Source of the DNA: a virus
IMG/VR virus record: IMGVR_UViG_3300028569_000020
Location: 1 to 64,000 of that record
DNA length: 64,000 bases
Reading direction: 5' to 3' (one strand)
This document shows positions 1-63,918 of the stretch, one piece after another. The translations under genes and the position numbers were made by a program. The notes below the pieces were generated by a model. The model was not told where the DNA came from. It searched no databases and worked only from the letters and a program-made list of their open reading frames with translations. Position 1 is the first letter of the stretch. The number at the start of each line of letters is the position of its first letter.

Positions 1-99
1 GAAGGTATCTTTCAGAAGAAATTCGAATGGTTTGTAAACCTTCGTACTTCTGGCGGTATTGATACTGTGCCTTTCTTCAGTTCTATGCGTCTGGCATAA
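1..99 (+). CDS. 3' end of a hypothetical phage protein (partial): EGIFQKKFEWFVNLRTSGGIDTVPFFSSMRLA*
   Basis: Open frame from base 1 to TAA at 97-99, followed directly by a terminator hairpin. Confidence 0.7.
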   Translation, partial: EGIFQKKFEWFVNLRTSGGIDTVPFFSSMRLA

Positions 100-107
100 C
101 TTAAATT

Positions 108-145
108 CTGAAGATTCTAAGTTTTTTTAGAATCTTCAGTTTTTT
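108..145 (+). terminator. Intrinsic terminator
   Basis: 13-bp perfect stem CTGAAGATTCTAA (108-120) / TTAGAATCTTCAG (127-139) followed by a T run. Confidence 0.75.
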
Positions 146-188
146 AAATATCTTCAACTTCTTAAAAACTACAACTTTTAAGTTTTAA

Positions 189-252
189 AGAAAAAAAGGG
201 TTTTTAGAAAAAAAGGTTTTTTAGTTTTATTTATAATTATAAATTTAAATTT
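189..252. repeat. AT-rich tract with a 17-bp tandem repeat and AT palindromes
   Basis: AGAAAAAAAGGGTTTTT (189-205) / AGAAAAAAAGGTTTTTT (206-222); perfect palindrome ATTTATAATTATAAAT at 229-244, containing TATAAT. Confidence 0.7.
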
Positions 253-269
253 CTCATTTAACTAAACAA

Positions 270-416
270 ATGAATTTTGAATCAGAGATCAAGGAGCTAG
301 ACTATCAAGCAACAGAGGATATCTTCTTAGAAGAAGATCTCAATGAATATGATGATTCATCAACTGCTTATTATAATCAGTTAATAAGTGAATGTATATT
401 ACCTATTACTAGGTAA
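270..416 (+). CDS. Small acidic hypothetical protein, 48 aa (MNFESEIKELDYQATEDIFLEEDLNEYDD...)
   Basis: Translated by hand; A/C-rich leader (ACTAAACAA) before the ATG; below the ORF-track size cut-off. Confidence 0.65.
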   Translation: MNFESEIKELDYQATEDIFLEEDLNEYDDSSTAYYNQLISECILPITR

Positions 417-461
417 TACTTAATTCATTCAACAAACCAACTTTCATTCAACAAACAAATC

Positions 462-614
462 ATGGCTTCATTATCTGCTTCAATCATTCTCAATCTATTA
501 GATAAGGCAACTACTTCGAGAGAAGTAGTTACTATTCTAGATACTCTAGAGTATCACTTAGGTGACACTACTGAGAGTATCACTCAACCTAACCTAGAAT
601 CTATACAATTCTAG
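462..614 (+). CDS. Small hypothetical protein, 50 aa (MASLSASIILNLLDKATTSREVVTILDTLE...)
   Basis: Translated by hand; leader carries a duplicated TTCATTCAACAAAC (424-437, 443-456). Confidence 0.65.
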   Translation: MASLSASIILNLLDKATTSREVVTILDTLEYHLGDTTESITQPNLESIQF

Positions 615-621
615 GTTGAGT

Positions 622-701
622 GTGCCAGTCTGTAGACTGTCTACTATTCAACCATTCTCCCCCCTCAGGGGTTATGCTTAGCAAGTCAACCAAACAAAGC
701 A
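622..701 (+). promoter_or_regulatory. Early promoter unit 0
   Basis: Imperfect palindrome GTGCCAGTCTGTAGACTGTCTAC at 622-644, -10-like TATGCT at 673-678, A/C-rich leader. Confidence 0.55.
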
Positions 702-827
702 ATGCCCGACACGCTCAACTTCACTGGTGACACTATCACCTATCTAGGTTTCATAGGTGTCACTTCAACCCTGATCATTCTGGTTTCAGTGTTTCGTTCC
801 TTCTACAACTCACCACTGAACAAATAA
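702..827 (+). CDS. Small single-pass membrane protein, 41 aa (MPDTLNFTGDTITYLGFIGVTSTLIILVSVFRSFYNSPLNK)
   Basis: Translated by hand; one hydrophobic segment; lies directly after promoter unit 0. Confidence 0.7.
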   Translation: MPDTLNFTGDTITYLGFIGVTSTLIILVSVFRSFYNSPLNK

Positions 828-985
828 TGAATTGCCCTGATAATGAAACCTTTGAATTAGCAATCAAGTTACACAACAAACTTCGATATCTTTCAGGAGG
901 TAATGAGAATGATCAGGATTTAGTTTCTCTTCTAGATTGTCTTATTCAAGATCAAAGAATCAACCTTATCACTCAAACAAAATGA
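827..985 (+). CDS. Small hypothetical protein, 52 aa (MNCPDNETFELAIKLHNKLRYLSGG...)
   Basis: TAATG overlap with the previous gene and ATGA overlap with the next (translational coupling). Confidence 0.65.
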   Translation: MNCPDNETFELAIKLHNKLRYLSGGNENDQDLVSLLDCLIQDQRINLITQTK

Positions 986-1410
986 CTCAAACTGTTTACA
1001 CTGACGCCATTATTATTGACACTTTGTGTCAGGCAACTCGTGATTACTTAGAGGAGAATTGTGAGGAGGGTAGTTATGCTTTAGATGATGCTCTAGAGTT
1101 TATAGCAACTCATGGCGAAGAAAATCTAGTTAACTACTATGATGATTATATCATTATGGCAGAGAAGATTGGTTACGATGTTGTTGATGCCTTTATAAGT
1201 ATCAACGATATTAGTAATGTTAACTACGCTCAAGATTCCTTTGTTGGTTGTTACTCTAGCGGTGCTGCTTTCGCTGAAAAATATTACTGGCACAATGAAA
1301 CTCATCCTGTGCCAAGTTATATAATTGTTGATTGGGAGGCAACATGGGAGAGCAACATGCGATATGATTTTGATTATATAAACGGTTACGTGTTTGATAG
1401 TAACTGGTAG
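982..1410 (+). CDS. ArdA-like antirestriction (DNA mimic) protein; start revised to ATG 982
   Basis: Acidic, Tyr-rich protein; C-terminal FVGCYSSGAAFAEKYY...VPSYIIVDWEATWE resembles the ArdA C-terminal signature. Confidence 0.55.
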   Translation: MTQTVYTDAIIIDTLCQATRDYLEENCEEGSYALDDALEFIATHGEENLVNYYDDYIIMAEKIGYDVVDAFISINDISNVNYAQDSFVGCYSSGAAFAEKYYWHNETHPVPSYIIVDWEATWESNMRYDFDYINGYVFDSNW

Positions 1411-1473
1411 TTACTAAGTAACATTTAGCAAGGGGCGGCAGCGGCCGCTCCTCTCTCCCTTCCCTCCCCTCCC

Positions 1474-1507
1474 GCCCTCTAGGTTACAGACCCTAGAGGG
1501 CATTTTG
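1474..1507 (+). terminator. Intrinsic terminator-like hairpin
   Basis: GCCCTCTAGG-N8-CCTAGAGGGC followed by ATTTTG. Confidence 0.65.
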
Positions 1508-1515
1508 TTGATTTA

Positions 1516-1600
1516 GTAGACAGTTGCTACGCTGTCTACCTTTACCCCATAGATCCGCTGCTGACCCTGTATAATTAAAGAGTAAACAAGGGAAACCAAA
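1516..1600 (+). promoter_or_regulatory. Early promoter unit A
   Basis: Perfect inverted repeat GTAGACAG-N8-CTGTCTAC at 1516-1539; TATAAT at 1570-1575; leader with AAGGGAAACC. Confidence 0.8.
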
Positions 1601-1744
1601 ATGTGGGATGAGATCCAAGACTGTGCAGGCGAGATTTTTGATTTCGATCAGTGGATCGATGAGATCGCCTCAGATCCCGAGTTCATCGCTCAGGTTGAGG
1701 CATCCAACGCCCAGTTTGACCTGGAGGTGGCACAGTTGCCCTAG
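1601..1744 (+). CDS. Acidic microprotein, 47 aa (MWDEIQDCAGEIFDFDQWIDEIASDPEFIAQVEASNAQFDLEVAQLP)
   Basis: ATG directly after the unit A leader; not in the ORF track. Confidence 0.75.
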   Translation: MWDEIQDCAGEIFDFDQWIDEIASDPEFIAQVEASNAQFDLEVAQLP

Positions 1745-1814
1745 TGGCACAGTCAGGGGCAATGGATGCCCCTCTGACCCTGTAGAATTAAAACAACAAA
1801 CAACCAGAGACCAA
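1729..1814 (+). promoter_or_regulatory. Early promoter unit B
   Basis: Half-site GTGGCAC ending at 1750; hairpin GGGGCA-atgga-TGCCCC at 1756-1772; TAGAAT at 1783-1788. Confidence 0.75.
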
Positions 1815-1979
1815 ATGACTCGCCTCCTTGCCTATCTGCTGATCTCAGGAATCACTCTCGGGGTTTCCCTCTCGGCAGTTAATAGCACCAACCAAATGAT
1901 TAAGGTATTAAACCAGAGGCAAACCGCCCAGTGTGACAGTCTAAACGCTGTCACTCCTGGCAGTTGCGTTATGCCTTGA
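1815..1979 (+). CDS. Microprotein with an N-terminal hydrophobic/signal segment, 54 aa (MTRLLAYLLISGITLGVSLSAVNS...)
   Basis: Start revised from 1608 to the ATG following the unit B leader. Confidence 0.65.
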   Translation: MTRLLAYLLISGITLGVSLSAVNSTNQMIKVLNQRQTAQCDSLNAVTPGSCVMP

Positions 1980-2016
1980 CCCTGTAGAATTAAAACAACC
2001 AAACAAAGGAAACCAA
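1933..2016 (+). promoter_or_regulatory. Early promoter unit C
   Basis: Perfect inverted repeat GTGACAG-N8-CTGTCAC at 1933-1954; TAGAAT at 1985-1990; AAAGGAAACC leader. Confidence 0.8.
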
Positions 2017-2181
2017 ATGACCCGCCTCTTGACCGTTCGCTGCCCCTCTGCTCCTTGGGAGAATGACACTGTGCCCGCTGATCAGGCATGGGATCTATGC
2101 TACGACCTCTCAATTGAATTTGGTTGCGCTCGCATCCTAGACGGTGAGCAGATCATCGGTGAATATCTAGACGGTCGCTAG
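2017..2181 (+). CDS. Microprotein, 54 aa (MTRLLTVRCPSAPWENDTVPADQAWDLCYDLSIEFGCARILDGEQIIGEYLDGR)
   Basis: Translated by hand; not in the ORF track. Confidence 0.75.
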   Translation: MTRLLTVRCPSAPWENDTVPADQAWDLCYDLSIEFGCARILDGEQIIGEYLDGR

Positions 2182-2252
2182 ACTGTCACACACAGGGGCA
2201 GAGGATGCCCCTCTACCATGCTACAATTAAACCACAAACAAAGGGAAACCAA
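2168..2252 (+). promoter_or_regulatory. Early promoter unit D
   Basis: TAGACGG-N8-CTGTCAC at 2168-2189; hairpin AGGGGCA-gagga-TGCCCCT at 2194-2212; extended -10 TGcTACAAT (hexamer 2222-2227). Confidence 0.8.
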
Positions 2253-2498
2253 ATGGCAACCGCAACGATGACCGAGACCGAGACCTTCAACGGTTGGGCA
2301 AACTGGGCAACTTGGAATGTAGCATTGTGGTTACAGAATGATGAGGCAATGTATAAGGTTGCTAGGCAATATGATCGCTACGATGCACTCATCCCACGCC
2401 TTGAGTATGCCTTCGGTCAGATGACCCCAGACGGTGCCCGTTGGATGGATCCAACTATAGATACCGATGAGTTGGATGAGATGCTCACCGATATGTAG
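2253..2498 (+). CDS. Conserved-type phage hypothetical protein with an (F/Y)NGWxNxxTWNVxLW motif, 81 aa
   Basis: FNGWANWATWNVALWLQNDE motif; start revised to the ATG after the unit D leader. Confidence 0.8.
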   Translation: MATATMTETETFNGWANWATWNVALWLQNDEAMYKVARQYDRYDALIPRLEYAFGQMTPDGARWMDPTIDTDELDEMLTDM

Positions 2499-2555
2499 AT
2501 TATACTCTAGAGGGGCATTGCTGCCCCTCTCACTGTTAACCACTGCCCTCACTAA

Positions 2556-2711
2556 ATGAGATTTAGAAAACGCAAGATCGCCTTAGCTATCATCGGTTTC
2601 ATGATGTTTGGGCCTGGCGTGTTAACCGTCCTAGCACTGATCAAATATCTAGATCGTTTTGATGTGCCTGCAGGCGGACTGTCACCAGATGACCCCAACC
2701 TCTCCCTCTGA
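2556..2711 (+). CDS. Small membrane protein, 51 aa (MRFRKRKIALAIIGFMMFGPGVLTVLALIKYLDRF...)
   Basis: Basic N-terminus followed by a hydrophobic stretch; preceded by hairpin AGAGGGGCA-ttgc-TGCCCCTCT at 2509-2530 (decayed unit or terminator). Confidence 0.55.
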   Translation: MRFRKRKIALAIIGFMMFGPGVLTVLALIKYLDRFDVPAGGLSPDDPNLSL

Positions 2712-2745
2712 CCCTGTAGAATTAAACCACAAACAACCAGAGACC
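2664..2745 (+). promoter_or_regulatory. Early promoter unit E
   Basis: GTGCCTG-N8-CTGTCAC at 2664-2685; CCTCTGACCCTGTAGAATTAAACCACAAACAACCAGAGACC. Confidence 0.8.
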
Positions 2746-2946
2746 ATGCTTCCAATCAACTCTAAGTTCAGTGCCTGCGCTCGTAAGGTTACAGGCAACC
2801 CCTTAAGGGGCACTGTGGGGGTGACCTTTACTAGCAGCGATAAAGTTTATCGCTTCACTGGGGTTTCCCGCCGTGCCATTCTAGGCGCTGTCATTCTCCC
2901 CCCCGCTAGTGTAGGCAAGTGGATCAATCGCCACTGTTTCGCCTGA
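2746..2946 (+). CDS. Microprotein, possibly KTSC-domain-like, 66 aa
   Basis: VTF...VYRFTGVSRRAIL...SVGKWINRH resembles the KTSC pattern; start revised. Confidence 0.65.
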   Translation: MLPINSKFSACARKVTGNPLRGTVGVTFTSSDKVYRFTGVSRRAILGAVILPPASVGKWINRHCFA

Positions 2947-2993
2947 GGGGCACGGTTGCCATGCTACAATTAAACAACAAACAACCCCAGACC
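2919..2993 (+). promoter_or_regulatory. Early promoter unit F
   Basis: Extended -10 TGcTACAAT (2965-2970); short hairpin GGCA-cggt-TGCC; leader TAAACAACAAACAACCCCAGACC. Confidence 0.7.
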
Positions 2994-3170
2994 ATGCCAA
3001 ACGTTTCCCGCTCCTACCGTGCCAAAACAACCTCATCCTATGCCCTACATCGCCGCTGGATTGAGCAGGATATGGATCAGCAGGATGCCGATATAATGAG
3101 AGTATATGATCGGGCACAATACTATGCCGAGCAGGACGGTTGCCACACTGGCACAGACAGCGATGCCTAG
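2994..3170 (+). CDS. Microprotein, 58 aa (MPNVSRSYRAKTTSSYALHRRWIEQD...)
   Basis: Start revised to the ATG after the unit F leader. Confidence 0.65.
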   Translation: MPNVSRSYRAKTTSSYALHRRWIEQDMDQQDADIMRVYDRAQYYAEQDGCHTGTDSDA

Positions 3171-3215
3171 TCGCTGCTGACCGTCTAGAATTAAAACAAC
3201 AAAGCAACCCAACCA
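3133..3215 (+). promoter_or_regulatory. Early promoter unit G
   Basis: Half-site CTGGCAC at 3148-3154; hairpin CAGCGA-tgcctag-TCGCTG at 3158-3176; TAGAAT at 3186-3191. Confidence 0.75.
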
Positions 3216-3395
3216 ATGCAAATCGAAGTTCGCTACCAGACTCCTTACCCCGCCGCTGGATTGACTGAGGAGTGGCGCTCACAATTCTTTTCCACCCTGC
3301 CTGAGGCAGAGCGGATGGTCAAGTTCTACAAATCCTGTGGATCACCTGCCCACATTGCCCCTAGCAGTTTGGCACAATTCGCCCACCTCGCCTAG
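3216..3395 (+). CDS. Microprotein, 59 aa (MQIEVRYQTPYPAAGLTEEWRSQFFSTLPEAERMVKFYKSCGSPAHIA...)
   Basis: Translated by hand; not in the ORF track. Confidence 0.75.
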   Translation: MQIEVRYQTPYPAAGLTEEWRSQFFSTLPEAERMVKFYKSCGSPAHIAPSSLAQFAHLA

Positions 3396-3462
3396 TGGCA
3401 CAAGCGAGGGGCACCCCGCCCCTCTGACCGTCTAGAATTAAAACAACAAACAACCAGAGACC
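3380..3462 (+). promoter_or_regulatory. Early promoter unit H
   Basis: GTGGCAC at 3395-3401; hairpin GAGGGGC-acccc-GCCCCTC at 3406-3424; TAGAAT at 3433-3438. Confidence 0.8.
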
Positions 3463-3687
3463 ATGATCACCGAAAACGACCTTCTCCAAGCTTGGGCCGA
3501 TGCCACCGCTCACCTGACCCCAGAGGAGCGGGAGGCCGTAGGCAAGGCAACCCCAGAGCAATGGATGGCAGCAATGGCAGGATGCGTTAACGATCCCGAT
3601 TTCTGGCAGAGAATGGGCGCTGCCTTTATCGAGGGAGTGGCGAAGGGGTTCGCTGATTGGGCAGCTGATTGGGCAGCGAACAGGTAA
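3463..3687 (+). CDS. Ala/Trp-rich helical microprotein, 74 aa
   Basis: ORF track; ATG directly after the unit H leader. Confidence 0.75.
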   Translation: MITENDLLQAWADATAHLTPEEREAVGKATPEQWMAAMAGCVNDPDFWQRMGAAFIEGVAKGFADWAADWAANR

Positions 3688-3756
3688 GGCACTGGCACAC
3701 TGGGGCCAAATGCCCCCTCTGACCCTGTAGACTAACCAAGTAAACAAACAAACCAA
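3677..3756 (+). promoter_or_regulatory. Early promoter unit I
   Basis: CTGGCAC at 3692-3698; hairpin GGGGC-caaat-GCCCC at 3702-3716; TAGACT at 3728-3733. Confidence 0.7.
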
Positions 3757-3960
3757 ATGATCACAACCAATTTCTCAGATCTGACCGCCAACGAGGCAAG
3801 GCAGGCAATCTACAATCTCACCTGCATCTATAGTTGGGAGACCATTGGCAGCGAGATGATCAGCCGCATGAGTGGCGATGAGGCCCGCTCCTTTGTTGAA
3901 GATTTCACCAACCTCTACACCTGCGATATAGATGAGGATGATGATGAGGGTGCCAATTAA
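3757..3960 (+). CDS. Microprotein with an acidic tail, 67 aa
   Basis: ORF track; follows unit I. Confidence 0.75.
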   Translation: MITTNFSDLTANEARQAIYNLTCIYSWETIGSEMISRMSGDEARSFVEDFTNLYTCDIDEDDDEGAN

Positions 3961-4036
3961 GGCACTGGCACAATCGGGGGCAGAGGTTGCCCCTTGACCG
4001 TCTAGAATTAAACCACAAACAAAGGAGAGATCCCAA
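3950..4036 (+). promoter_or_regulatory. Early promoter unit J
   Basis: GTGCCAA-N8-CTGGCAC at 3950-3971; hairpin GGGGCA-gaggt-TGCCCC at 3977-3993; TAGAAT at 4003-4008; SD AAGGAG. Confidence 0.8.
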
Positions 4037-4207
4037 ATGACCCGCTTCACTTCCAACCCTTACGAGCAGCAGATCCTCGCTAAGGGTCGCGACCTGCCCA
4101 CCGCTGCTGCTCCTGCACAGCAATTCCCTAAGACCATCTACGGTCGCACCTTTGAGACTAAGGCAGACTACGATGAGGCAATCGCTGATTTCCTAAACGG
4201 AAACTAG
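4037..4207 (+). CDS. Microprotein, 56 aa (MTRFTSNPYEQQILAKGRDLPTAAAPAQQFPKTIYGRTFETKADYDEAIADFLNGN)
   Basis: Translated by hand; not in the ORF track. Confidence 0.75.
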   Translation: MTRFTSNPYEQQILAKGRDLPTAAAPAQQFPKTIYGRTFETKADYDEAIADFLNGN

Positions 4208-4247
4208 GGGCACCCCTACGGGGGGGCACCCCTACGGGGGGGCGGGG
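4207..4247. repeat. G/C-rich 16-bp tandem repeat (CACCCCTACGGGGGGG x2)
   Basis: GGGG-CACCCCTACGGGGGGG-CACCCCTACGGGGGGG-CGGGG; a related CCCCTACGGGGG CCCCCTCGGGGG lies at 4475-4498. Confidence 0.85.
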
Positions 4248-4276
4248 TTGACACCTGCCCCTTTACCCCGTATAAT
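4248..4276 (+). promoter_or_regulatory. Perfect sigma70 consensus promoter (unit K)
   Basis: TTGACA (4248-4253), 17-bp spacer, TATAAT (4271-4276). Confidence 0.9.
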
Positions 4277-4306
4277 TTAAGAGTACCAAACCAAAGTAAC
4301 CCACCA

Positions 4307-4474
4307 ATGACCGCAACCTTCACCATCGCCACCAAGTTCCTAGAGTTGACCACCTTTGAATTGGAGGAGTGGTTATGGGTAGGCACCACCTCCCTGGAAG
4401 AGGAGCGGGCAATCTGTAAGGAACTGGCAACCCGTGCCAAGCGTAGGCAAGCGATGGAAGATTTCCTCTGGTGA
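4307..4474 (+). CDS. Microprotein, 55 aa (MTATFTIATKFLELTTFELEEWLWVGTTSLEEERAICKELATRAKRRQAMEDFLW)
   Basis: Translated by hand; follows unit K. Confidence 0.7.
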   Translation: MTATFTIATKFLELTTFELEEWLWVGTTSLEEERAICKELATRAKRRQAMEDFLW

Positions 4475-4538
4475 CCCCTACGGGGGCCCCCTCGGGGGTA
4501 TGCTACAATTAAACAGTAATCAACCAACCTCAGACCTA
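4475..4538 (+). promoter_or_regulatory. Early promoter unit L
   Basis: G/C palindromes, then extended -10 TGcTACAAT (4504-4509) and an A/C-rich leader. Confidence 0.7.
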
Positions 4539-4745
4539 ATGACCAACCTGCCAATCTCCCCATGCTCAGACCTTGCCACCAGAGAACTCAAGTGGTTGTG
4601 GCAATCTGATCAGTTGAAGAATTACGCTTCCCGCCCCTCTATGTTTATTCACTGGGGTGTGCCTGCCTACATCATCGCCGCCCAGTGTGCTGAGGTTCAC
4701 GCTGATGAGGTGGCACCCTGCCCTATCAGTGGGTGGCGTTACTGA
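4539..4745 (+). CDS. Microprotein, 68 aa (MTNLPISPCSDLATRELKWLWQSDQL...)
   Basis: Start revised from 4434 to the ATG after unit L. Confidence 0.7.
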   Translation: MTNLPISPCSDLATRELKWLWQSDQLKNYASRPSMFIHWGVPAYIIAAQCAEVHADEVAPCPISGWRY

Positions 4746-4762
4746 GGGCGCCGCGACGGTCG

Positions 4763-4781
4763 CTGCCCTTCGGGGCAGTTG
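4763..4781 (+). terminator. cUUCGg tetraloop hairpin closing the array
   Basis: CTGCCC-TTCG-GGGCAG; the U tail is short, so the terminator role is uncertain. Confidence 0.5.
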
Positions 4782-4971
4782 ACTGTATATTATAACGATA
4801 TCGTGATGGTGCCGAGCGCCGAGCGAAAAGTCGTGGGTCCCTCCAACCTACAAACCTTTGAAAACGCTCAAGTGATTTCGAATACATATAAAAAAATTTC
4901 CGCCAGAAAAAACAGACAAAAAAACCTGAATGAAATAGATAGATATATAAGTTACCTCGCAGGTATTCTAA

Positions 4972-5226
4972 GTGAATAAAGAAGAATTATATAATATTGC
5001 TGATCAGGTAGGATTTACTGAATACTTGCTAGTAGCTCAAGAATTTGAAAGAGTAGAGTGCGAAAAAATTTGCAAATCATTTGCTATGAATGAGAAGCGA
5101 ATCGAGGTTGCTGCTGCATTAAATAGAGCAGCAGATTTAATTCGTTTACGTAGCGAGTTTGGAAACATCAATTTACCAGAAAGAAATACACCAAAAGATT
5201 TTATAACTTATATTGAGGATAAGTAG
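4972..5226 (+). CDS. Hypothetical protein
   Basis: ORF track; GTG start; AT-rich codon usage like the rest of the genome. Confidence 0.6.
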   Translation: MNKEELYNIADQVGFTEYLLVAQEFERVECEKICKSFAMNEKRIEVAAALNRAADLIRLRSEFGNINLPERNTPKDFITYIEDK

Positions 5227-5227
5227 A

Positions 5228-5554
5228 ATGAATAGTTACATTTTAAGAGCAGACAATCCTTCTAAACTATCGAATACCCTTTATGTGTATTACACTGGTG
5301 ATGGATGGGATACAAGTATGGAAAAAGTGATTTATTATTTTAAAAGAGAGGATGCTGAGGAGGCATTAAATTTAGTAAATAGTATTGCATTAAACATCAC
5401 CGTTGAAGAGGTCACTAAAGACGGTCCAAAGGTTGATGCAGTAGATGGTGATGATGATGGTTTGGTTGAGGACGGCACAGTATTTGAGCGCCCGATTGAA
5501 GTAAAAACAGTAAAGAAGAGAGCATATACTAAAAAGAAAGATATTAATAAATAA
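5228..5554 (+). CDS. Hypothetical protein with a DGDDDGLVEDGTVFERP acidic loop and a basic tail
   Basis: ATG at 5228 just after the upstream stop; DxDxDG loop is calcium-binding-like. Confidence 0.65.
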   Translation: MNSYILRADNPSKLSNTLYVYYTGDGWDTSMEKVIYYFKREDAEEALNLVNSIALNITVEEVTKDGPKVDAVDGDDDGLVEDGTVFERPIEVKTVKKRAYTKKKDINK

Positions 5555-5570
5555 TTCAAAAATCACCATT

Positions 5571-5729
5571 ATGAAATACGTTACCACAATTGAATATGAC
5601 GATGGAAATGACGAGTATATGTTACCGATACCTGAAGAGCTGTTAACAGCTTTAGGATGGGTTGAGGGTGATAATTTAAAATGGGAGTATGCAGACGATT
5701 CTATTTTGCTGAGTAAAACAAATGACTGA
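5571..5729 (+). CDS. AbrB/MazE/SpoVT-like DNA-binding protein, 52 aa
   Basis: MKYVTTIEYDDGNDEYMLPIPEELLTALGWVEGDNLKWEYADDSILLSKTND; the xIPxEx..LGW.EGD.L pattern fits the swapped-hairpin fold; missed by the ORF track. Confidence 0.7.
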   Translation: MKYVTTIEYDDGNDEYMLPIPEELLTALGWVEGDNLKWEYADDSILLSKTND

Positions 5730-6042
5730 ATTCGGATATAAGATTGTTGATAAAAATGGAAATATAGTAGAAGATAAGACGTTTGAAGATTTTGATTCAG
5801 TAGCAGACTATATGTTAGATGCAGCTGACAAGTGGTATTCTGGGTTACAGGATCCTAGTGATGTTATGAGTTTACAAAGAAGAGAAAATGGCACTGTAGT
5901 TTTTGAAGACACTAATAGTTTTGGAATTGAAAATGATGCACTTAGAAACCACGGATCAGAAGATACAGAAGTTGTTGATGTTACTGCAACAACAGGAGAA
6001 TCGGATTCAGTATTTGGAGAAACGTATAGCGAAGATTCCTGA
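5722..6042 (+). CDS. Acidic hypothetical protein
   Basis: ORF track. Confidence 0.6.
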   Translation: MTEFGYKIVDKNGNIVEDKTFEDFDSVADYMLDAADKWYSGLQDPSDVMSLQRRENGTVVFEDTNSFGIENDALRNHGSEDTEVVDVTATTGESDSVFGETYSEDS

Positions 6043-6193
6043 TCCGTTTTCAATTAGTTATAGACCACCTGGTGAAAACTATAAGAGTCTTCCCGATGCG
6101 TTAGATGCAGTATGCAATCGACTAAATAATTTGGAAGAAAAGACAAGAGAAGCGAAAGTATGCCACCAGCGTCTAGAATGCAAGACAAAGTAG
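5933..6193 (+). CDS. Coiled-coil hypothetical protein (YRPPG motif)
   Basis: ATG at 5933; heptad-like pattern; overlaps both neighbours. Confidence 0.55.
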   Translation: MMHLETTDQKIQKLLMLLQQQENRIQYLEKRIAKIPDPFSISYRPPGENYKSLPDALDAVCNRLNNLEEKTREAKVCHQRLECKTK

Positions 6194-6471
6194 CTACTGG
6201 GCATGGGTGTGATGTTACAACAACCATCCTTGAAGGGTCTCCTAACGTCATTATAGAAGGTCTTGGCGCTGCATATCAAGGTGCTGCATTAACACCTCAT
6301 ACTATTACAAATCCAGCGCCATTACCAGCGCCACCGTGTATACCACACACAGCAAAAGTTAATGTTGGTAGTAGCACAGTAAAGGTAAATGGAAAAGCTT
6401 TAGCACGAGTTGGTGATTCTGCAGATGCTGGTAGCATTATAGCTGGCGCAAAGAAAGTATTAGCAAAATGA
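6160..6471 (+). CDS. PAAR-domain baseplate spike tip (T4 gp5.4-like)
   Basis: PASRMQD...GHGC...GSPNV; GSSTVKVNGKALARVGD repeats. Confidence 0.9.
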   Translation: MPPASRMQDKVATGHGCDVTTTILEGSPNVIIEGLGAAYQGAALTPHTITNPAPLPAPPCIPHTAKVNVGSSTVKVNGKALARVGDSADAGSIIAGAKKVLAK

Positions 6472-6854
6472 AAGAAGTAGAAATTCATATAAATGAATGG
6501 ATTGAGAAAATTTCTAAGTTGCAATCAGAATTAAATGGTTTTTCGATTTTCCCGTATGCAAAATCTGCGAAATATACTATCATTCATTGTAGAGTAGAAG
6601 ATATTATACCAGTTGAAGATTACGACGTTGTTTTTTATGTTGTTGAAGATTATCTAGATTTGCAATCTATTCAATATTGGGTAAACTTTTACAATGAATT
6701 GTATACTCAATACATATTTTTGGAAGACCATGCAGATTATGACACTTATATCAATAATATTCAAACAAACAATGGTAAGTATAATTTAATTTTAATGCAA
6801 GATTTACAGAAATTACGAAATCGGGATAGCAACCCCGTAAAAAGTTCTGTTTAA
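6468..6854 (+). CDS. Hypothetical protein, possibly truncated at the C-terminus
   Basis: ORF track; ATGA-type overlap with PAAR; the last codons run through a small hairpin element. Confidence 0.65.
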   Translation: MKEVEIHINEWIEKISKLQSELNGFSIFPYAKSAKYTIIHCRVEDIIPVEDYDVVFYVVEDYLDLQSIQYWVNFYNELYTQYIFLEDHADYDTYINNIQTNNGKYNLILMQDLQKLRNRDSNPVKSSV

Positions 6855-6872
6855 CTTTTACGAGAAAAACAG

Positions 6873-7070
6873 ATGGCAAAAAAACAGATTCCTGACAACG
6901 TACCTTCGATGATGTCTGAAGATTTTGGCACCACAGTATTAATTACTGATCCAAGGTCTGACGCTTTACTAGAAAGATCACGCAAAATGAAATATATGAA
7001 ACCTCCGAATCGTTTAGAAAAATGGTGTGGTGGCAAAGGTGGCTTCGATGATTATGCCGAGTGGTTATAA
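6873..7070 (+). CDS. Small hypothetical protein upstream of gp25
   Basis: ORF track. Confidence 0.7.
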   Translation: MAKKQIPDNVPSMMSEDFGTTVLITDPRSDALLERSRKMKYMKPPNRLEKWCGGKGGFDDYAEWL

Positions 7071-48182: not shown

Positions 48183-49772
48183 ATGGCTTGGAAATCAGAT
48201 AAAATTGTTATTATTGGAGGAGGATCTGCAGGATGGATGAGCGCATCAACATTAGTTAGATTCTTTCCAAATAAAGATATTACGGTTATAGAAAGTCCCG
48301 ATATTCCAACAGTTGGAGTTGGAGAAAGTACTCTAGGATTTATTAGAGCATGGACATCTTCTTTAGGAATTGACGAAAAAGATTTTATGAAGCACACTGA
48401 TGCCTCATATAAATTAAGTATTAAATTTACAGATTTTTATAAAAAAAATTCAGGAGGATTTCATTATCCATTTGGTACTCCACATTTCACTGATAAAAAT
48501 TTTCTTGGATTGCGAGATTGGGATTTAAAAAAACATTATTATCCTGATACTCGAGTACAAGATTATTGTAGAACATTTTTTCCTGCAATGGCTTTGATAG
48601 AAAATAATAAAATTAGTCAAAATGAAGGTGGAGAATTTGGAGCATTTAGATTTGACAATGACGTAGCATATCACTTTGATTCTGTTAAATTTTCAATTTG
48701 GCTACGAGATAATTATGCTTTACCCAGAGGAGTAAAACATATTAAAGCAACAGTTAAAAACGTTGTTACTGATGATAGTGGGGTAAAAGAAGTTATTCTT
48801 GATAGCGGAGATGTAATCACCGCTGATTTATTTGTTGATTGCACTGGATGGAAAAGTATGCTTTTGGGCGATGCTTTAAAAGTTCCTTTCACTTCATATA
48901 ATGATATTATTCCAAATAATAGAGCATGGGCAACTCAGGTGCCTTATATAAATCCAGAAGAAGAAATGGAACCATATACAAATTGCACAGCAATTGATAA
49001 TGGTTGGGTTTGGAATATTCCACTATTTACCAGAATTGGTACAGGATATGTTTATAGCGACAAATATATTTCTAAAGAAGATGCCTTAAATCAATTTAAA
49101 AATCATCTTAAAACTAAGATGACAATTGTTGATGCCAATAGAATTACTGATGATTTAAACTTTAAAGATATTGAAATGAGAATTGGTATTCATGATAGAC
49201 CATGGGAAAAAAATGTAGTTTCTATTGGATTAGCATGTGGATTTATAGAACCATTAGAAAGTAATGGTCTTCTTACAATACACGAATTTTTATTAAAATT
49301 AGTAAAATATTTAAACAGAGAAATTATTTCTCAATGGGATATTGATAGTTATAATACTGGCACAAAAAGATTTTTCAGAACTTTTGCTGAATTTGTTGCT
49401 TTACATTACGCATTAAGTGCAAGAAACGATACTGAATATTGGAATGATGTCACTAGTAAAAGTTTTTCTCCATCTATGGTTGATTTAGTACCTTCAATGG
49501 TAGAAGGATTTGCGGATATGTCATCTAAAAAATTTGATGTTAGCGATTTTAATAATACTGCAGGAATCCATTGTTTAGCTCATGGGATGAGATATGATAC
49601 TATTGATGAATCAGTAATTGCACAATGGTCACATTATAATAAGCACGTAGATTATAAAAAAATAACAGATGAATTAATTCCTATATGGAATAAAGAGCAA
49701 AGACAATGGAAGCGAGAAGCAGAAGATTGTCCCACTGTTTATGAATATTTGAAAAATAATATTCATAATTAA
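48183..49772 (+). CDS. Flavin-dependent tryptophan halogenase family protein (PrnA-like)
   Basis: GGGSAG, GVGEST, catalytic-Lys region YKLSIKF, GWVWNIP (WxWxIP), GFIEPLESNG. Confidence 0.92.
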   Translation: MAWKSDKIVIIGGGSAGWMSASTLVRFFPNKDITVIESPDIPTVGVGESTLGFIRAWTSSLGIDEKDFMKHTDASYKLSIKFTDFYKKNSGGFHYPFGTPHFTDKNFLGLRDWDLKKHYYPDTRVQDYCRTFFPAMALIENNKISQNEGGEFGAFRFDNDVAYHFDSVKFSIWLRDNYALPRGVKHIKATVKNVVTDDSGVKEVILDSGDVITADLFVDCTGWKSMLLGDALKVPFTSYNDIIPNNRAWATQVPYINPEEEMEPYTNCTAIDNGWVWNIPLFTRIGTGYVYSDKYISKEDALNQFKNHLKTKMTIVDANRITDDLNFKDIEMRIGIHDRPWEKNVVSIGLACGFIEPLESNGLLTIHEFLLKLVKYLNREIISQWDIDSYNTGTKRFFRTFAEFVALHYALSARNDTEYWNDVTSKSFSPSMVDLVPSMVEGFADMSSKKFDVSDFNNTAGIHCLAHGMRYDTIDESVIAQWSHYNKHVDYKKITDELIPIWNKEQRQWKREAEDCPTVYEYLKNNIHN

Positions 49773-62932: not shown

Positions 62933-63448
62933 ATGGGACAGACTAAGTGGTATTCAGAGCAACCGAAAAATAGAAATTTTCTTGCTCCAGTAGGATTTAA
63001 GATGGAATTAGATCTATTTGTAGGCGTAGATTTTTTCTGTCAACGAGCAAATATTCCTGATATAACATTACCGTATACTGAAGTGCCAACAAGGTTTAGA
63101 AGTTTCCCTATCGCTTCTGCTGGAGGAATACAAACAGGCGATTTAAATTTAACATTTATTATTGATGAAGAATTAAAAAATTATATGACTATTCAAAACT
63201 GGATAAAGAAAAATGGATTATACGAAGAGCATAGTAATTCAGAAGCAGAGTATTCTGGAGGAAGATTAGAAATCACAACAAGTAATTTTAATATTGCTGC
63301 ATATGTTTCATACGAAAATCTTTTTCCAATATCTTTATCTGATGTTAGATTTGATGTATCCGACACAGACGTAGAATACTTTACTGCCGAAGCATCATTT
63401 AAATACACTTCTTTTGAAATTAGAAATAAACGTAATATAAAATTATGA
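62933..63448 (+). CDS. gp3: Tail completion protein gp3
   Basis: NRNFLAPVGF, FFCQRANIP, FIIDEELKNY, FPISLS. Confidence 0.9.
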   Translation: MGQTKWYSEQPKNRNFLAPVGFKMELDLFVGVDFFCQRANIPDITLPYTEVPTRFRSFPIASAGGIQTGDLNLTFIIDEELKNYMTIQNWIKKNGLYEEHSNSEAEYSGGRLEITTSNFNIAAYVSYENLFPISLSDVRFDVSDTDVEYFTAEASFKYTSFEIRNKRNIKL

Positions 63449-63918
63449 AATTTGATCATTTGAAAACACTTTTTAATCATGTTAAATCAGAATGGCAAGC
63501 AGACTCACATATAGACTTTGAATTTAAAAATAAACAATACTCAGCAGACCTAGCACAAATTTCTTTAGACATTCCTTATCAGCACAACAAATACTTAAAC
63601 TTCTACACAGACTTCTCAACAGAAAAAACGGCACTGGAATTTCAGTATCGCATAAAGTTAAAAGAGAAACGAGAATACTATCAAGGAGAAGCAGACCCAG
63701 AGATATACAAAGAAAAACCTTTTGGGCAATCTATCAAGACCTCAGAAAAAATGAAAGTTTATCTAGAGGCAGACGAAGATTTAATTAATATAGAAATAAA
63801 AATAGAGTTTATTAGTAAGGCTTTATTCTTCTTAGATAATATTCTTAAGATGATATCAAACAGGTCTTTCCAAATCAAAAATGCCATCGAATGGGAAAAA
63901 TTCATCAACGGTAACTAA
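63445..63918 (+). CDS. uvsY: Recombination mediator UvsY
   Basis: IPYQHNKY, EYYQG, YLEADED, ISNRSFQIKNAIEW. Confidence 0.92.
   Translation: MKFDHLKTLFNHVKSEWQADSHIDFEFKNKQYSADLAQISLDIPYQHNKYLNFYTDFSTEKTALEFQYRIKLKEKREYYQGEADPEIYKEKPFGQSIKTSEKMKVYLEADEDLINIEIKIEFISKALFFLDNILKMISNRSFQIKNAIEWEKFINGN

Follow-up and report, generated by a model that had tools for sequence, protein, structure and literature searches.

The closest described systems are the promoter early stem-loop (PeSL) elements of T4-type phages, each of which joins a strong sigma-70-like early promoter to a terminating stem-loop, generally of the GGGG...CCCC type (Arbiol et al. 2010, PMC2839356; Comeau et al. 2014, PMC4122927). 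PeSLs are dense in hyperplastic regions and mediate insertions, deletions and replacements there, as described for phages RB49/phi1, T4/PST and KVP40/nt-1 (PMC2839356; PMC4122927), and the sequenced junctions of PeSL mini-circles lie either between the -10 box and the ATG or in the stem-loop (PMC2839356). In the open-access literature, a single paper was found that links PeSLs with cyanophages, in which they are discussed only for the 'ORFanage' of phage S-PM2, a neighbour of the region compared below, and judged sparse there (Puxty et al. 2015, PMC4503421). Here we describe an array of 13 small genes (A to M) in the first 64 kb, hereafter the window, of a 94.5-kb viral contig from IMG/VR. This array is most probably a PeSL-type hyperplastic region made of one-gene expression cassettes, carried by a T4-like cyanomyovirus. 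The principle has been known for the coliphage relatives of T4 since 2010 and the present array extends it; the likeness to PeSLs, named in a preliminary description of this DNA, proved to be the right comparison.

The window encodes the T4-type proteins gp6, gp8, gp25, terminase, sheath, portal, scaffold, gp23 and UvsY, and its portal is ~70% identical to Synechococcus myovirus portals. Because of this gene set and of the portal identity, the source virus is, as judged from its genes, an uncultured T4-like cyanomyovirus; CheckV estimated a completeness of ~50% for the contig. At the DNA level no cultured phage was found near the window, and a megablast search with the array region plus 15 kb of flank against 50,697 phage records gave no close relative.

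The array forms an island of 53% guanine plus cytosine (GC) content at about 1430-4790 in a window of 35% GC, with a sharp GC step at both borders. Its 13 open reading frames (ORFs) lie between 1601 and 4745, all on the plus strand, and encode proteins of 47-81 amino acids (aa). In 12 of the 13 genes a -10 box of the form TA(G/T/C)A(A/C)T ends 23-30 nucleotides (nt) 5' of the ATG, gene E being the exception. The features of the island, all on the plus strand, are listed below in window coordinates.

1474-1510, plus strand: intrinsic-terminator-like hairpin with T-run, detected by the terminator scan; left border of the island, kept in the related loci L034, L035 and L138.
1516-1744, plus strand: cassette A; dyad 1516-1539, -10 box 1570-1575, ORF 1601-1744 (47 aa).
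1745-1979, plus strand: cassette B; TGGCAC at 1728 and 1745, hairpin 1755-1773, -10 box 1783-1788, ORF 1815-1979 (54 aa, membrane protein).
1933-2181, plus strand: cassette C; dyad 1933-1954 within the end of B, -10 box 1985-1990, ORF 2017-2181 (54 aa, phrog_17176).
2170-2498, plus strand: cassette D; dyad 2170-2187, hairpin 2194-2212, -10 box 2222-2227, ORF 2253-2498 (81 aa, DUF7249/phrog_871).
2499-2711, plus strand: cassette E, a decayed unit; hairpin 2509-2530, no -10 box, ORF 2556-2711 (51 aa, membrane protein).
2704-2946, plus strand: cassette F; -10 box 2717-2722, ORF 2746-2946 (66 aa, phrog_7365).
2947-3170, plus strand: cassette G; degenerate hairpin, -10 box 2965-2970, ORF 2994-3170 (58 aa).
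3135-3395, plus strand: cassette H; dyad-like sequence 3135-3152, hairpin 3158-3176, -10 box 3186-3191, ORF 3216-3395 (59 aa).
3396-3687, plus strand: cassette I; TGGCAC at 3396, hairpin 3406-3424, -10 box 3433-3438, ORF 3463-3687 (74 aa).
3688-3960, plus strand: cassette J; TGGCAC at 3693, hairpin 3702-3716, -10 box TAGACT 3728-3733, ORF 3757-3960 (67 aa).
3950-4207, plus strand: cassette K; dyad 3950-3971, hairpin 3977-3993, -10 box 4003-4008, ORF 4037-4207 (56 aa).
4208-4474, plus strand: cassette L; two 16-nt GC repeats 4207-4238, TTGACA-17-TATAAT 4248-4276, ORF 4307-4474 (55 aa).
4475-4745, plus strand: cassette M; two short GC hairpins, -10 box 4504-4509, ORF 4539-4745 (68 aa).
4746-4935, plus strand: right border; hairpin 4763-4778, then a conserved non-coding element (palindrome, invariant TAACCTACAAA, A-run).

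The preliminary description had listed 13 -10 boxes, the first of them upstream of the island, and all 13 are present where it had placed them.

TAGAAT: 1783, 1985, 2717, 3186, 3433 and 4003.
TACAAT: 2222, 2965 and 4504.
Other hexamers: TATGCT at 673, TATAAT at 1570 and 4271, TAGACT at 3728.

As it had also noted, the boxes are followed by the ATG of a small ORF, at 23-30 nt from the end of the hexamer and with ORF lengths of 41-81 aa. The spacing from 1570 onwards is mostly 200-300 bp (213, 202, 237, 495, 248, 221, 247, 295, 275, 268 and 233 nt), and the double interval of 495 nt does hold a decayed unit, seen as a hairpin at 2509-2530 without a -10 box, before ORF E (2556-2711). Near-identical copies were also found, with 96% identity over 46 nt between the units at 1768-1813 and 3418-3463. 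The shared repeat that had been claimed for every box is present from 1570 onwards only; the box at 673 belongs to a second, different class of repeat, which is described further below.

Each cassette starts with a repeated module of 45-85 bp, in which an optional dyad or TGGCAC half-sites, a GGGG..CCCC hairpin, CTGACC with a TAGAAT-like -10 box, a leader and the ATG follow one another in this order. The core motif GACCSTSTAGAATTAAA, searched with up to 3 mismatches, has 9 matches in the window vs 0.68 expected, and none of 100 shuffles reached 9; seven of the nine matches are inside the island, all on the plus strand, and at up to 2 mismatches none was found outside the island in the 94.5-kb contig. 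The full dyad (GTGMCAGT-N6-ACTGKCAC) is kept in 4-5 of the 13 units and starts 52-54 nt 5' of the -10 box in A, C, D and K, and TGGCAC half-sites (8 in the island vs 0.9 expected) are found in B, H, I and J. B, D, H, I, J and K each have a perfect GGGG..CCCC-type GC hairpin whose end lies 8-11 nt 5' of the -10 box, the position where a -35 box would sit, and a seventh one, that of unit E, stands directly 5' of the place of its lost -10 box. Units G, L and M have imperfect or different GC hairpins, and A, C and F have none. Before L, the usual single hairpin is replaced by two tandem copies of the 16-nt GC repeat GGGGCACCCCTACGGG (4207-4238), and before M by the related CCCCTACGGGG hairpins (4469-4497). 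The leader, 23-30 nt long, is rich in A and C and poor in G (A 56%, C 28%, G 9%), and most units have no clear Shine-Dalgarno sequence. In two cassettes the stop codon is embedded in the (C/T)TGACC motif as its TGA, in B as TTGACC just 5' of the next -10 box and in E as CTGACC.

To compare the array with its relatives, syntenic arrays with the same flanks were gathered by motif and protein scans of viral and metagenome contigs, and four close arrays (L034, L035, L138 and L278), 80 loci anchored on gene H and the cultured phage S-PM2 (L038) were analysed. The motif scan of metagenome contigs returned mostly chance matches, but it yielded L138 and at least about 15 more distant arrays; a degenerate leader pattern run over viral contigs gave no new array among the matches listed, and a search with the protein encoded by the flanking gene Y alone recovered no relatives, whereas alignments of K and H did. 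The orders of the close arrays are those of hand-checked ORFs, because automatic clustering had merged families A and K through in-frame read-through. Cassette order in each array reads as follows.

Window: A B C D E F G H I J K L M
L035: A C G B H D F' K N
L034: C E G F H O D K I N
L138: G'. A C D H F K N
L278: C. G. f46 D H f47 f113 K M f19 L

A fixed gene order among relatives, which the preliminary description had named as a result that would speak against shuffling, was not found: the same families recur in different orders. Six cassettes (C G H D K N) form a colinear backbone in both L034 and L035, which are otherwise set apart by insertions and deletions of single cassettes and by one replacement, and the window and L278 add translocations, with D moved and the order of L and M reversed (M before L in L278). 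Cassette A has homologues in L035 (89% aa identity) and L138 (85%), and K is 93% identical at the aa level in both L034 and L035; B stands between G and H in L035; the homologue of E in L034 is 3' of C, just 4 nt apart; G lacks a promoter of its own in L035; and I is found 3' of K in L034. Over the 80 H-anchored loci, 73 distinct orders were counted, and H has at least 22 upstream and at least 16 downstream neighbour families. In the more distant arrays, including that of S-PM2, families K, Y, F, D and others are again reordered, each gene having a hairpin, -10 box and leader of genome-specific flavour. The variability of the downstream partner climbs with GC content, GC-rich families having 7-18 partners and AT-rich flank families 1-5; as an AT-rich control, f13 is followed by gp25 in 96% and f22 by f23 in 100% of cases. 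The array sits 5' of gp25, gp6 and gp8, and its content varies among more than 80 loci.

Apparent tandem duplicates in some arrays (H H, M M, f60 f60) were rejected, being spurious overlapping ORFs that the clustering had joined. In S-PM2, at L038 4450-4930, an adjacent pair of paralogous microgenes with the common motif EGAEMLRLIVRD, each member with its own promoter unit, is the sole credible tandem cassette duplication noticed.

The ends of homology between relatives, which had been expected to coincide with the repeats, do fall in the repeats or at stop codons. Cassette-level matches between the window and L034, L035 or L138 run from CTGACC or the hairpin to the stop codon or into the next leader. 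Spacers occupy 31% of the island and contain 17 of the 28 match ends (P = 0.0013); several of the misses are off by 10 nt or less. At the H locus, 2661 pairs with different upstream neighbours were compared, and 98% of the left homology ends fall between -120 and +20 relative to the ATG; in pairs with the same upstream neighbour, homology mostly runs more than 200 nt further. The right ends of homology at this locus are at the stop codon, within 20 nt.

Such breakpoints could also be obtained if the repeats were conserved early promoters and transcript ends only, with turnover of the genes by general or illegitimate recombination followed by selection for intact genes. Selection alone predicts intergenic breakpoints, a single RNA polymerase and its regulator reading all the units would keep the promoters similar, and functional constraint is suggested by the conservation of the CTGACC-TAGAAT core in many lineages. 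We consider this explanation rather unlikely, since homology blocks regularly stop inside the module, between the -10 box and the ATG, since neighbouring AT-rich regions of small genes hold their order much better, and since crossovers at PeSLs have been sequenced in the equivalent stretch (PMC2839356).

The composition of the modules themselves also bears on the point. Sub-variants are found before the -10 box (CCCTG or CCGTC), after it (TAAAAC or TAAACC) and at the end of the leader (AGAGACC or GGRAAACC), and all four pairwise combinations of promoter and leader sub-variants occur in one array (B and F; C; I; K), which also speaks against promoter conservation as the whole explanation. This mosaic is consistent with crossovers between the -10 box and the start codon, where junctions of PeSL mini-circles have been sequenced (PMC2839356). 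Module identity is 0.58 between unrelated cassettes of the same genome and also 0.58 between copies of the same gene in different genomes, compared to 0.49 for unrelated pairs. Mosaic sub-variants and module likeness are both compatible with units that exchange or convert one another repeatedly; recurrent mutation and shared constraint are possible alternative sources of both.

The exchange at modules favoured here is complemented by the ages of the cassettes, estimated as synonymous divergence (dS). The backbones of the window and L278 are distant, with gp25 50% identical at the aa level (dS 1.8) and flanks without any DNA match. For the cassettes common to both, dS is 0.03 for L, 0.25 for G, 0.41 for H, 0.48 for M, 1.1 for D, 1.6 for K and 2.6 for C, with 93% nt identity for L and aa identities of 82% for G and 96% for M. 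When the window is compared with L034, K (dS 0.48) matches the best-conserved flank genes in its young age, and Y, C, D and I are saturated. Hence, the cassettes of one and the same genome pair differ greatly in age and several are far younger than the backbone split. Because dS runs from 0.03 to more than 2.5 while gp25 is only 50% identical, single cassettes must have moved between phage lineages.

The sharp GC step at both borders would also be expected if the island were a one-off foreign block from a GC-rich donor, either the host or a GC-rich phage, or if it were an assembly chimera. Many independent contigs, and the sequenced isolate S-PM2 as well, have the same island at this position, and the chimera was rejected on the grounds that both flanks and the island recur in them. 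The spread of dS from 0.03 to above 2.5 within one genome pair means that the cassettes did not arrive together, and the codon shift of the island is towards C-ending rather than G-ending codons, so that a single foreign block seems barely conceivable.

This codon shift is strong. The GC content at third codon positions (GC3) falls from 0.60 in the cassettes to 0.28 in the small genes that flank them and to 0.17 in the structural genes, and the cassettes prefer C-ending codons (ACC 68%, ATC 73%, CGC 49%, with GCC also preferred), a choice that looks like selection and not plain GC pressure because the preferred codons end in C rather than G. We take this codon style to be that of marine Synechococcus. 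Limor-Waisberg et al. 2011 (PMC3152331) argue that AT-rich cyanomyoviruses depend on tRNAs of their own when the host is GC-rich. The codon style of the cassettes fits with this, as we suggest that genes translated before phage tRNAs exist would gain from host codons.

The array genes are real and under purifying selection, with ratios of nonsynonymous to synonymous divergence (dN/dS) of ~0.1 for H, M and K. Family assignments were obtained for D (DUF7249/phrog_871), F (phrog_7365) and C (phrog_17176), and the other 10 of the 13 array genes had no Pfam or PHROG match, the last three having been scanned against Pfam only. Homologues of K were found in 171 cultured cyanophage records, including S-PM2, of which 140 are named Synechococcus phage and 2 Prochlorococcus phage; for H, viral contigs gave 270 relatives.

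In principle, the cassettes could be moved by a site-specific system that recognises the hairpin or the dyad, be it integron-like or based on a homing endonuclease. The hairpin is conserved in structure and position and variable in sequence, the distance of the dyad is fixed, and in locus L036 an HNH-like ORF adjoins the island. Nevertheless, no tyrosine recombinase was found in the 94.5-kb contig, the cassettes have promoters of their own, unlike those of integrons, the mobile cassettes C and F lack a hairpin or a full dyad, and breakpoints are scattered over the module instead of falling at one point, all of which makes such a system very unlikely. The array had been called integrase-free, and this holds for the contig, about half of the genome, which contains no tyrosine recombinase domain (PF00589) in a scan with positive controls. 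The L036 ORF, of 170 aa and HNH/NUMOD-like, lies directly 3' of the GC island (L036 2857-3369) and may encode a homing endonuclease.

As shown by comparison of these genomes, cassettes are gained, lost, replaced and reordered at the modules, and single cassettes pass between cyanomyovirus lineages with very different backbones. Under the PeSL-type reading, a host RNA polymerase of the sigma-70 type would start one short mRNA per microgene early in infection. Host ribosomes would be able to translate it before the phage tRNAs are made, owing to the unstructured leader and to host-like codons that end in C, and the hairpin would end or stabilise the preceding transcript. Near-identical modules would supply short homologies to the phage recombination system, of the UvsX/UvsY type, both within one genome and between co-infecting phages. 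Homologous recombination is here the presumed mechanism, as translation without a strong Shine-Dalgarno sequence and the role given to the hairpin are presumed too. Of the two recombination genes that had been noted in the window, uvsY is present (63445-63918) and uvsW was not found in it. For the shuffleable cassette library proposed in the preliminary description, the variable order and the breakpoints bounded by modules stand, recombination between the repeats is their putative cause, and the host-takeover and anti-defence roles that it gave to the microgenes are conjectural.

Several points weigh against this reading. A -35 box is present in unit L alone, as part of a full consensus promoter (TTGACA-17-TATAAT, 4248-4276), and a generic promoter scan finds no other unit; firing of the promoters and its early timing are what we infer from the sequence and from the analogy with T4 and S-PM2. 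The hairpins lack a U-run (T-run in the DNA) and none was called by the terminator scan, so their action as terminators is doubtful. Intergenic breakpoints are partly expected under any mechanism of recombination from selection against broken genes. Neither circles nor duplications were seen, the apparent tandem duplicates being artefacts, and no near-identical genome pair differing by one cassette was found, no search dedicated to such pairs having been made. Finally, the likeness to host codons was judged from GC3 and C-ending codons and not against a host genome.

A broader idea may be put forward tentatively, namely that a common pool of GC-rich early microgenes with host codons moves singly between distant T4-like cyanophages by recombination at promoter modules, and that the upstream dyad may borrow a host transcription factor. 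A scan of 185,579 prokaryote genomes for the dyad gave matches in many phyla among the matches listed, and it is uninformative on the use of the dyad by hosts because ~1,000 matches are expected by chance. If this idea is true, the module would be both an immediate-early switch and a joint for gene exchange, and the hairpin might also be a hot spot of DNA recombination. It would explain how a tool kit for host takeover and counter-defence is renewed without disturbing the core genes, and also the GC-rich islands long seen in AT-rich cyanophage genomes. Cyanomyoviruses are among the most abundant viruses of sea and lakes, and hardly any of their small early genes has a known function. The module could be used to find early genes in metagenomes, and the same architecture in the cultured phage S-PM2 allows direct tests.

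Upstream of the island, the second class of unit and the flanking gene Y are arranged as follows, together with the copies of that unit in L034.

615-827, plus strand: second-class unit with x41 (ORF 702-827), a 41-aa membrane microgene.
982-1410, plus strand: gene Y, 142 aa, ArdA-like, flanking the array.
L034 1559-1642, 2081-2165, about 2942-3026 and 3587-3650: copies of the second-class unit.

The second-class unit (615-701) consists of a dyad-like GTGCCAGT..ACTGTC (620-641), the C-run/G-run hairpin CCCCCCTCAGGGG, TATGCT at 673 and the leader CAAGTCAACCAAACAAAG. It has one copy in the window and four in L034, before different, AT-richer genes, and in L035 it stands before Y. The x41 protein is 90% identical in L278 (dS 0.26).

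In S-PM2, L036 and L037, Y is found inside the array, after K and behind its own promoter. Six of 11 Y homologues had weak matches to Pfam ArdA (PF07275), all below the cut-off (best E 3e-4), and the window copy was unmatched. An AlphaFold2 model of Y (mean predicted local distance difference test, pLDDT, 86) was compared to solved structures with VIA-align, in which ArdA (2w82_A) was the top fold, with Z 6.9 over 118 residues and the next at Z 4.5; a Foldseek search of Y against the PDB gave no match. Y thus looks like ArdA in its predicted fold, a candidate anti-restriction DNA mimic, and it is the only hint of a counter-defence function at the array.

The element at the right border (window 4775-4935) contains the palindrome TATAACGATATCGTGAT, GCCGAGCGAAAAG, the invariant TAACCTACAAA and an A-run. 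It is 73-83% identical at the nt level in L034, L336, L328 and L332 and partially present in S-PM2, L036 and L037, and it is conserved in phages whose adjoining proteins are only ~40-50% identical. No Rfam match was found for it (positions 1-7000 were scanned) and no covariation was detected. An ORF of 57 aa called here (4806-4979) may be spurious. Elsewhere in the window, a PAAR-motif protein is encoded at 6160-6471, just 5' of gp25, and a flavoenzyme of the tryptophan-halogenase family at 48183-49772, amid tail-fibre genes.

When compared to known systems, the array resembles an integron in that single-gene units stand in a row, in one orientation, with a content that varies between relatives. 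It differs in having neither an integrase (in the 94.5-kb contig) nor attC sites, and in the promoter-like unit found before 12 of its 13 genes, whereas integron cassettes depend on one shared Pc promoter.

The likeness to the corresponding region of S-PM2 (LN828717, S-PM2d068-d078 and d239-d250) is much closer. Both arrays occupy the same place, after a MRKIE..-type gene and before gp25 and gp6, and share families K, Y, E-like, F and D. In S-PM2, too, a hairpin, a TATAAT/TAGGAT box and a repeated leader precede every gene. The S-PM2 array differs in the flavour of its repeat (leader CAGTTCAAACGAAACGAC) and in that K and Y precede F and D. The S-PM2 genes of this small-gene region are annotated as hypothetical proteins only. 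Early promoters of T4-like cyanophages, of a host type with a -10 box only and placed before small early genes, reportedly carry an upstream palindrome, in work said to be that of Doron and colleagues from 2016, and its match to the present dyad is unconfirmed. An earlier description of the promoter element is likely, and one of the shuffling is possible.

With the PeSLs of T4-like phages, finally, the array shares its setting in a hyperplastic region and the pairing of a GGGG..CCCC stem-loop with a host-type promoter in front of small ORFan genes. In both systems the units bound the indels, replacements and changes of order that separate relatives, no integrase is involved, and crossovers are inferred between the -10 box and the ATG. 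In contrast to PeSLs, 12 of the 13 units described here lack a -35 box and have in its place a hairpin without a U-run, many of them add an upstream dyad or TGGCAC half-sites, and their leader is rich in A and C and mostly without a clear Shine-Dalgarno sequence. Moreover, the array as a whole stands out from its AT-rich genome as a GC-rich island whose codons resemble those of the host, and the exchange spans phages with core genes ~50% identical, not just near-identical pairs.

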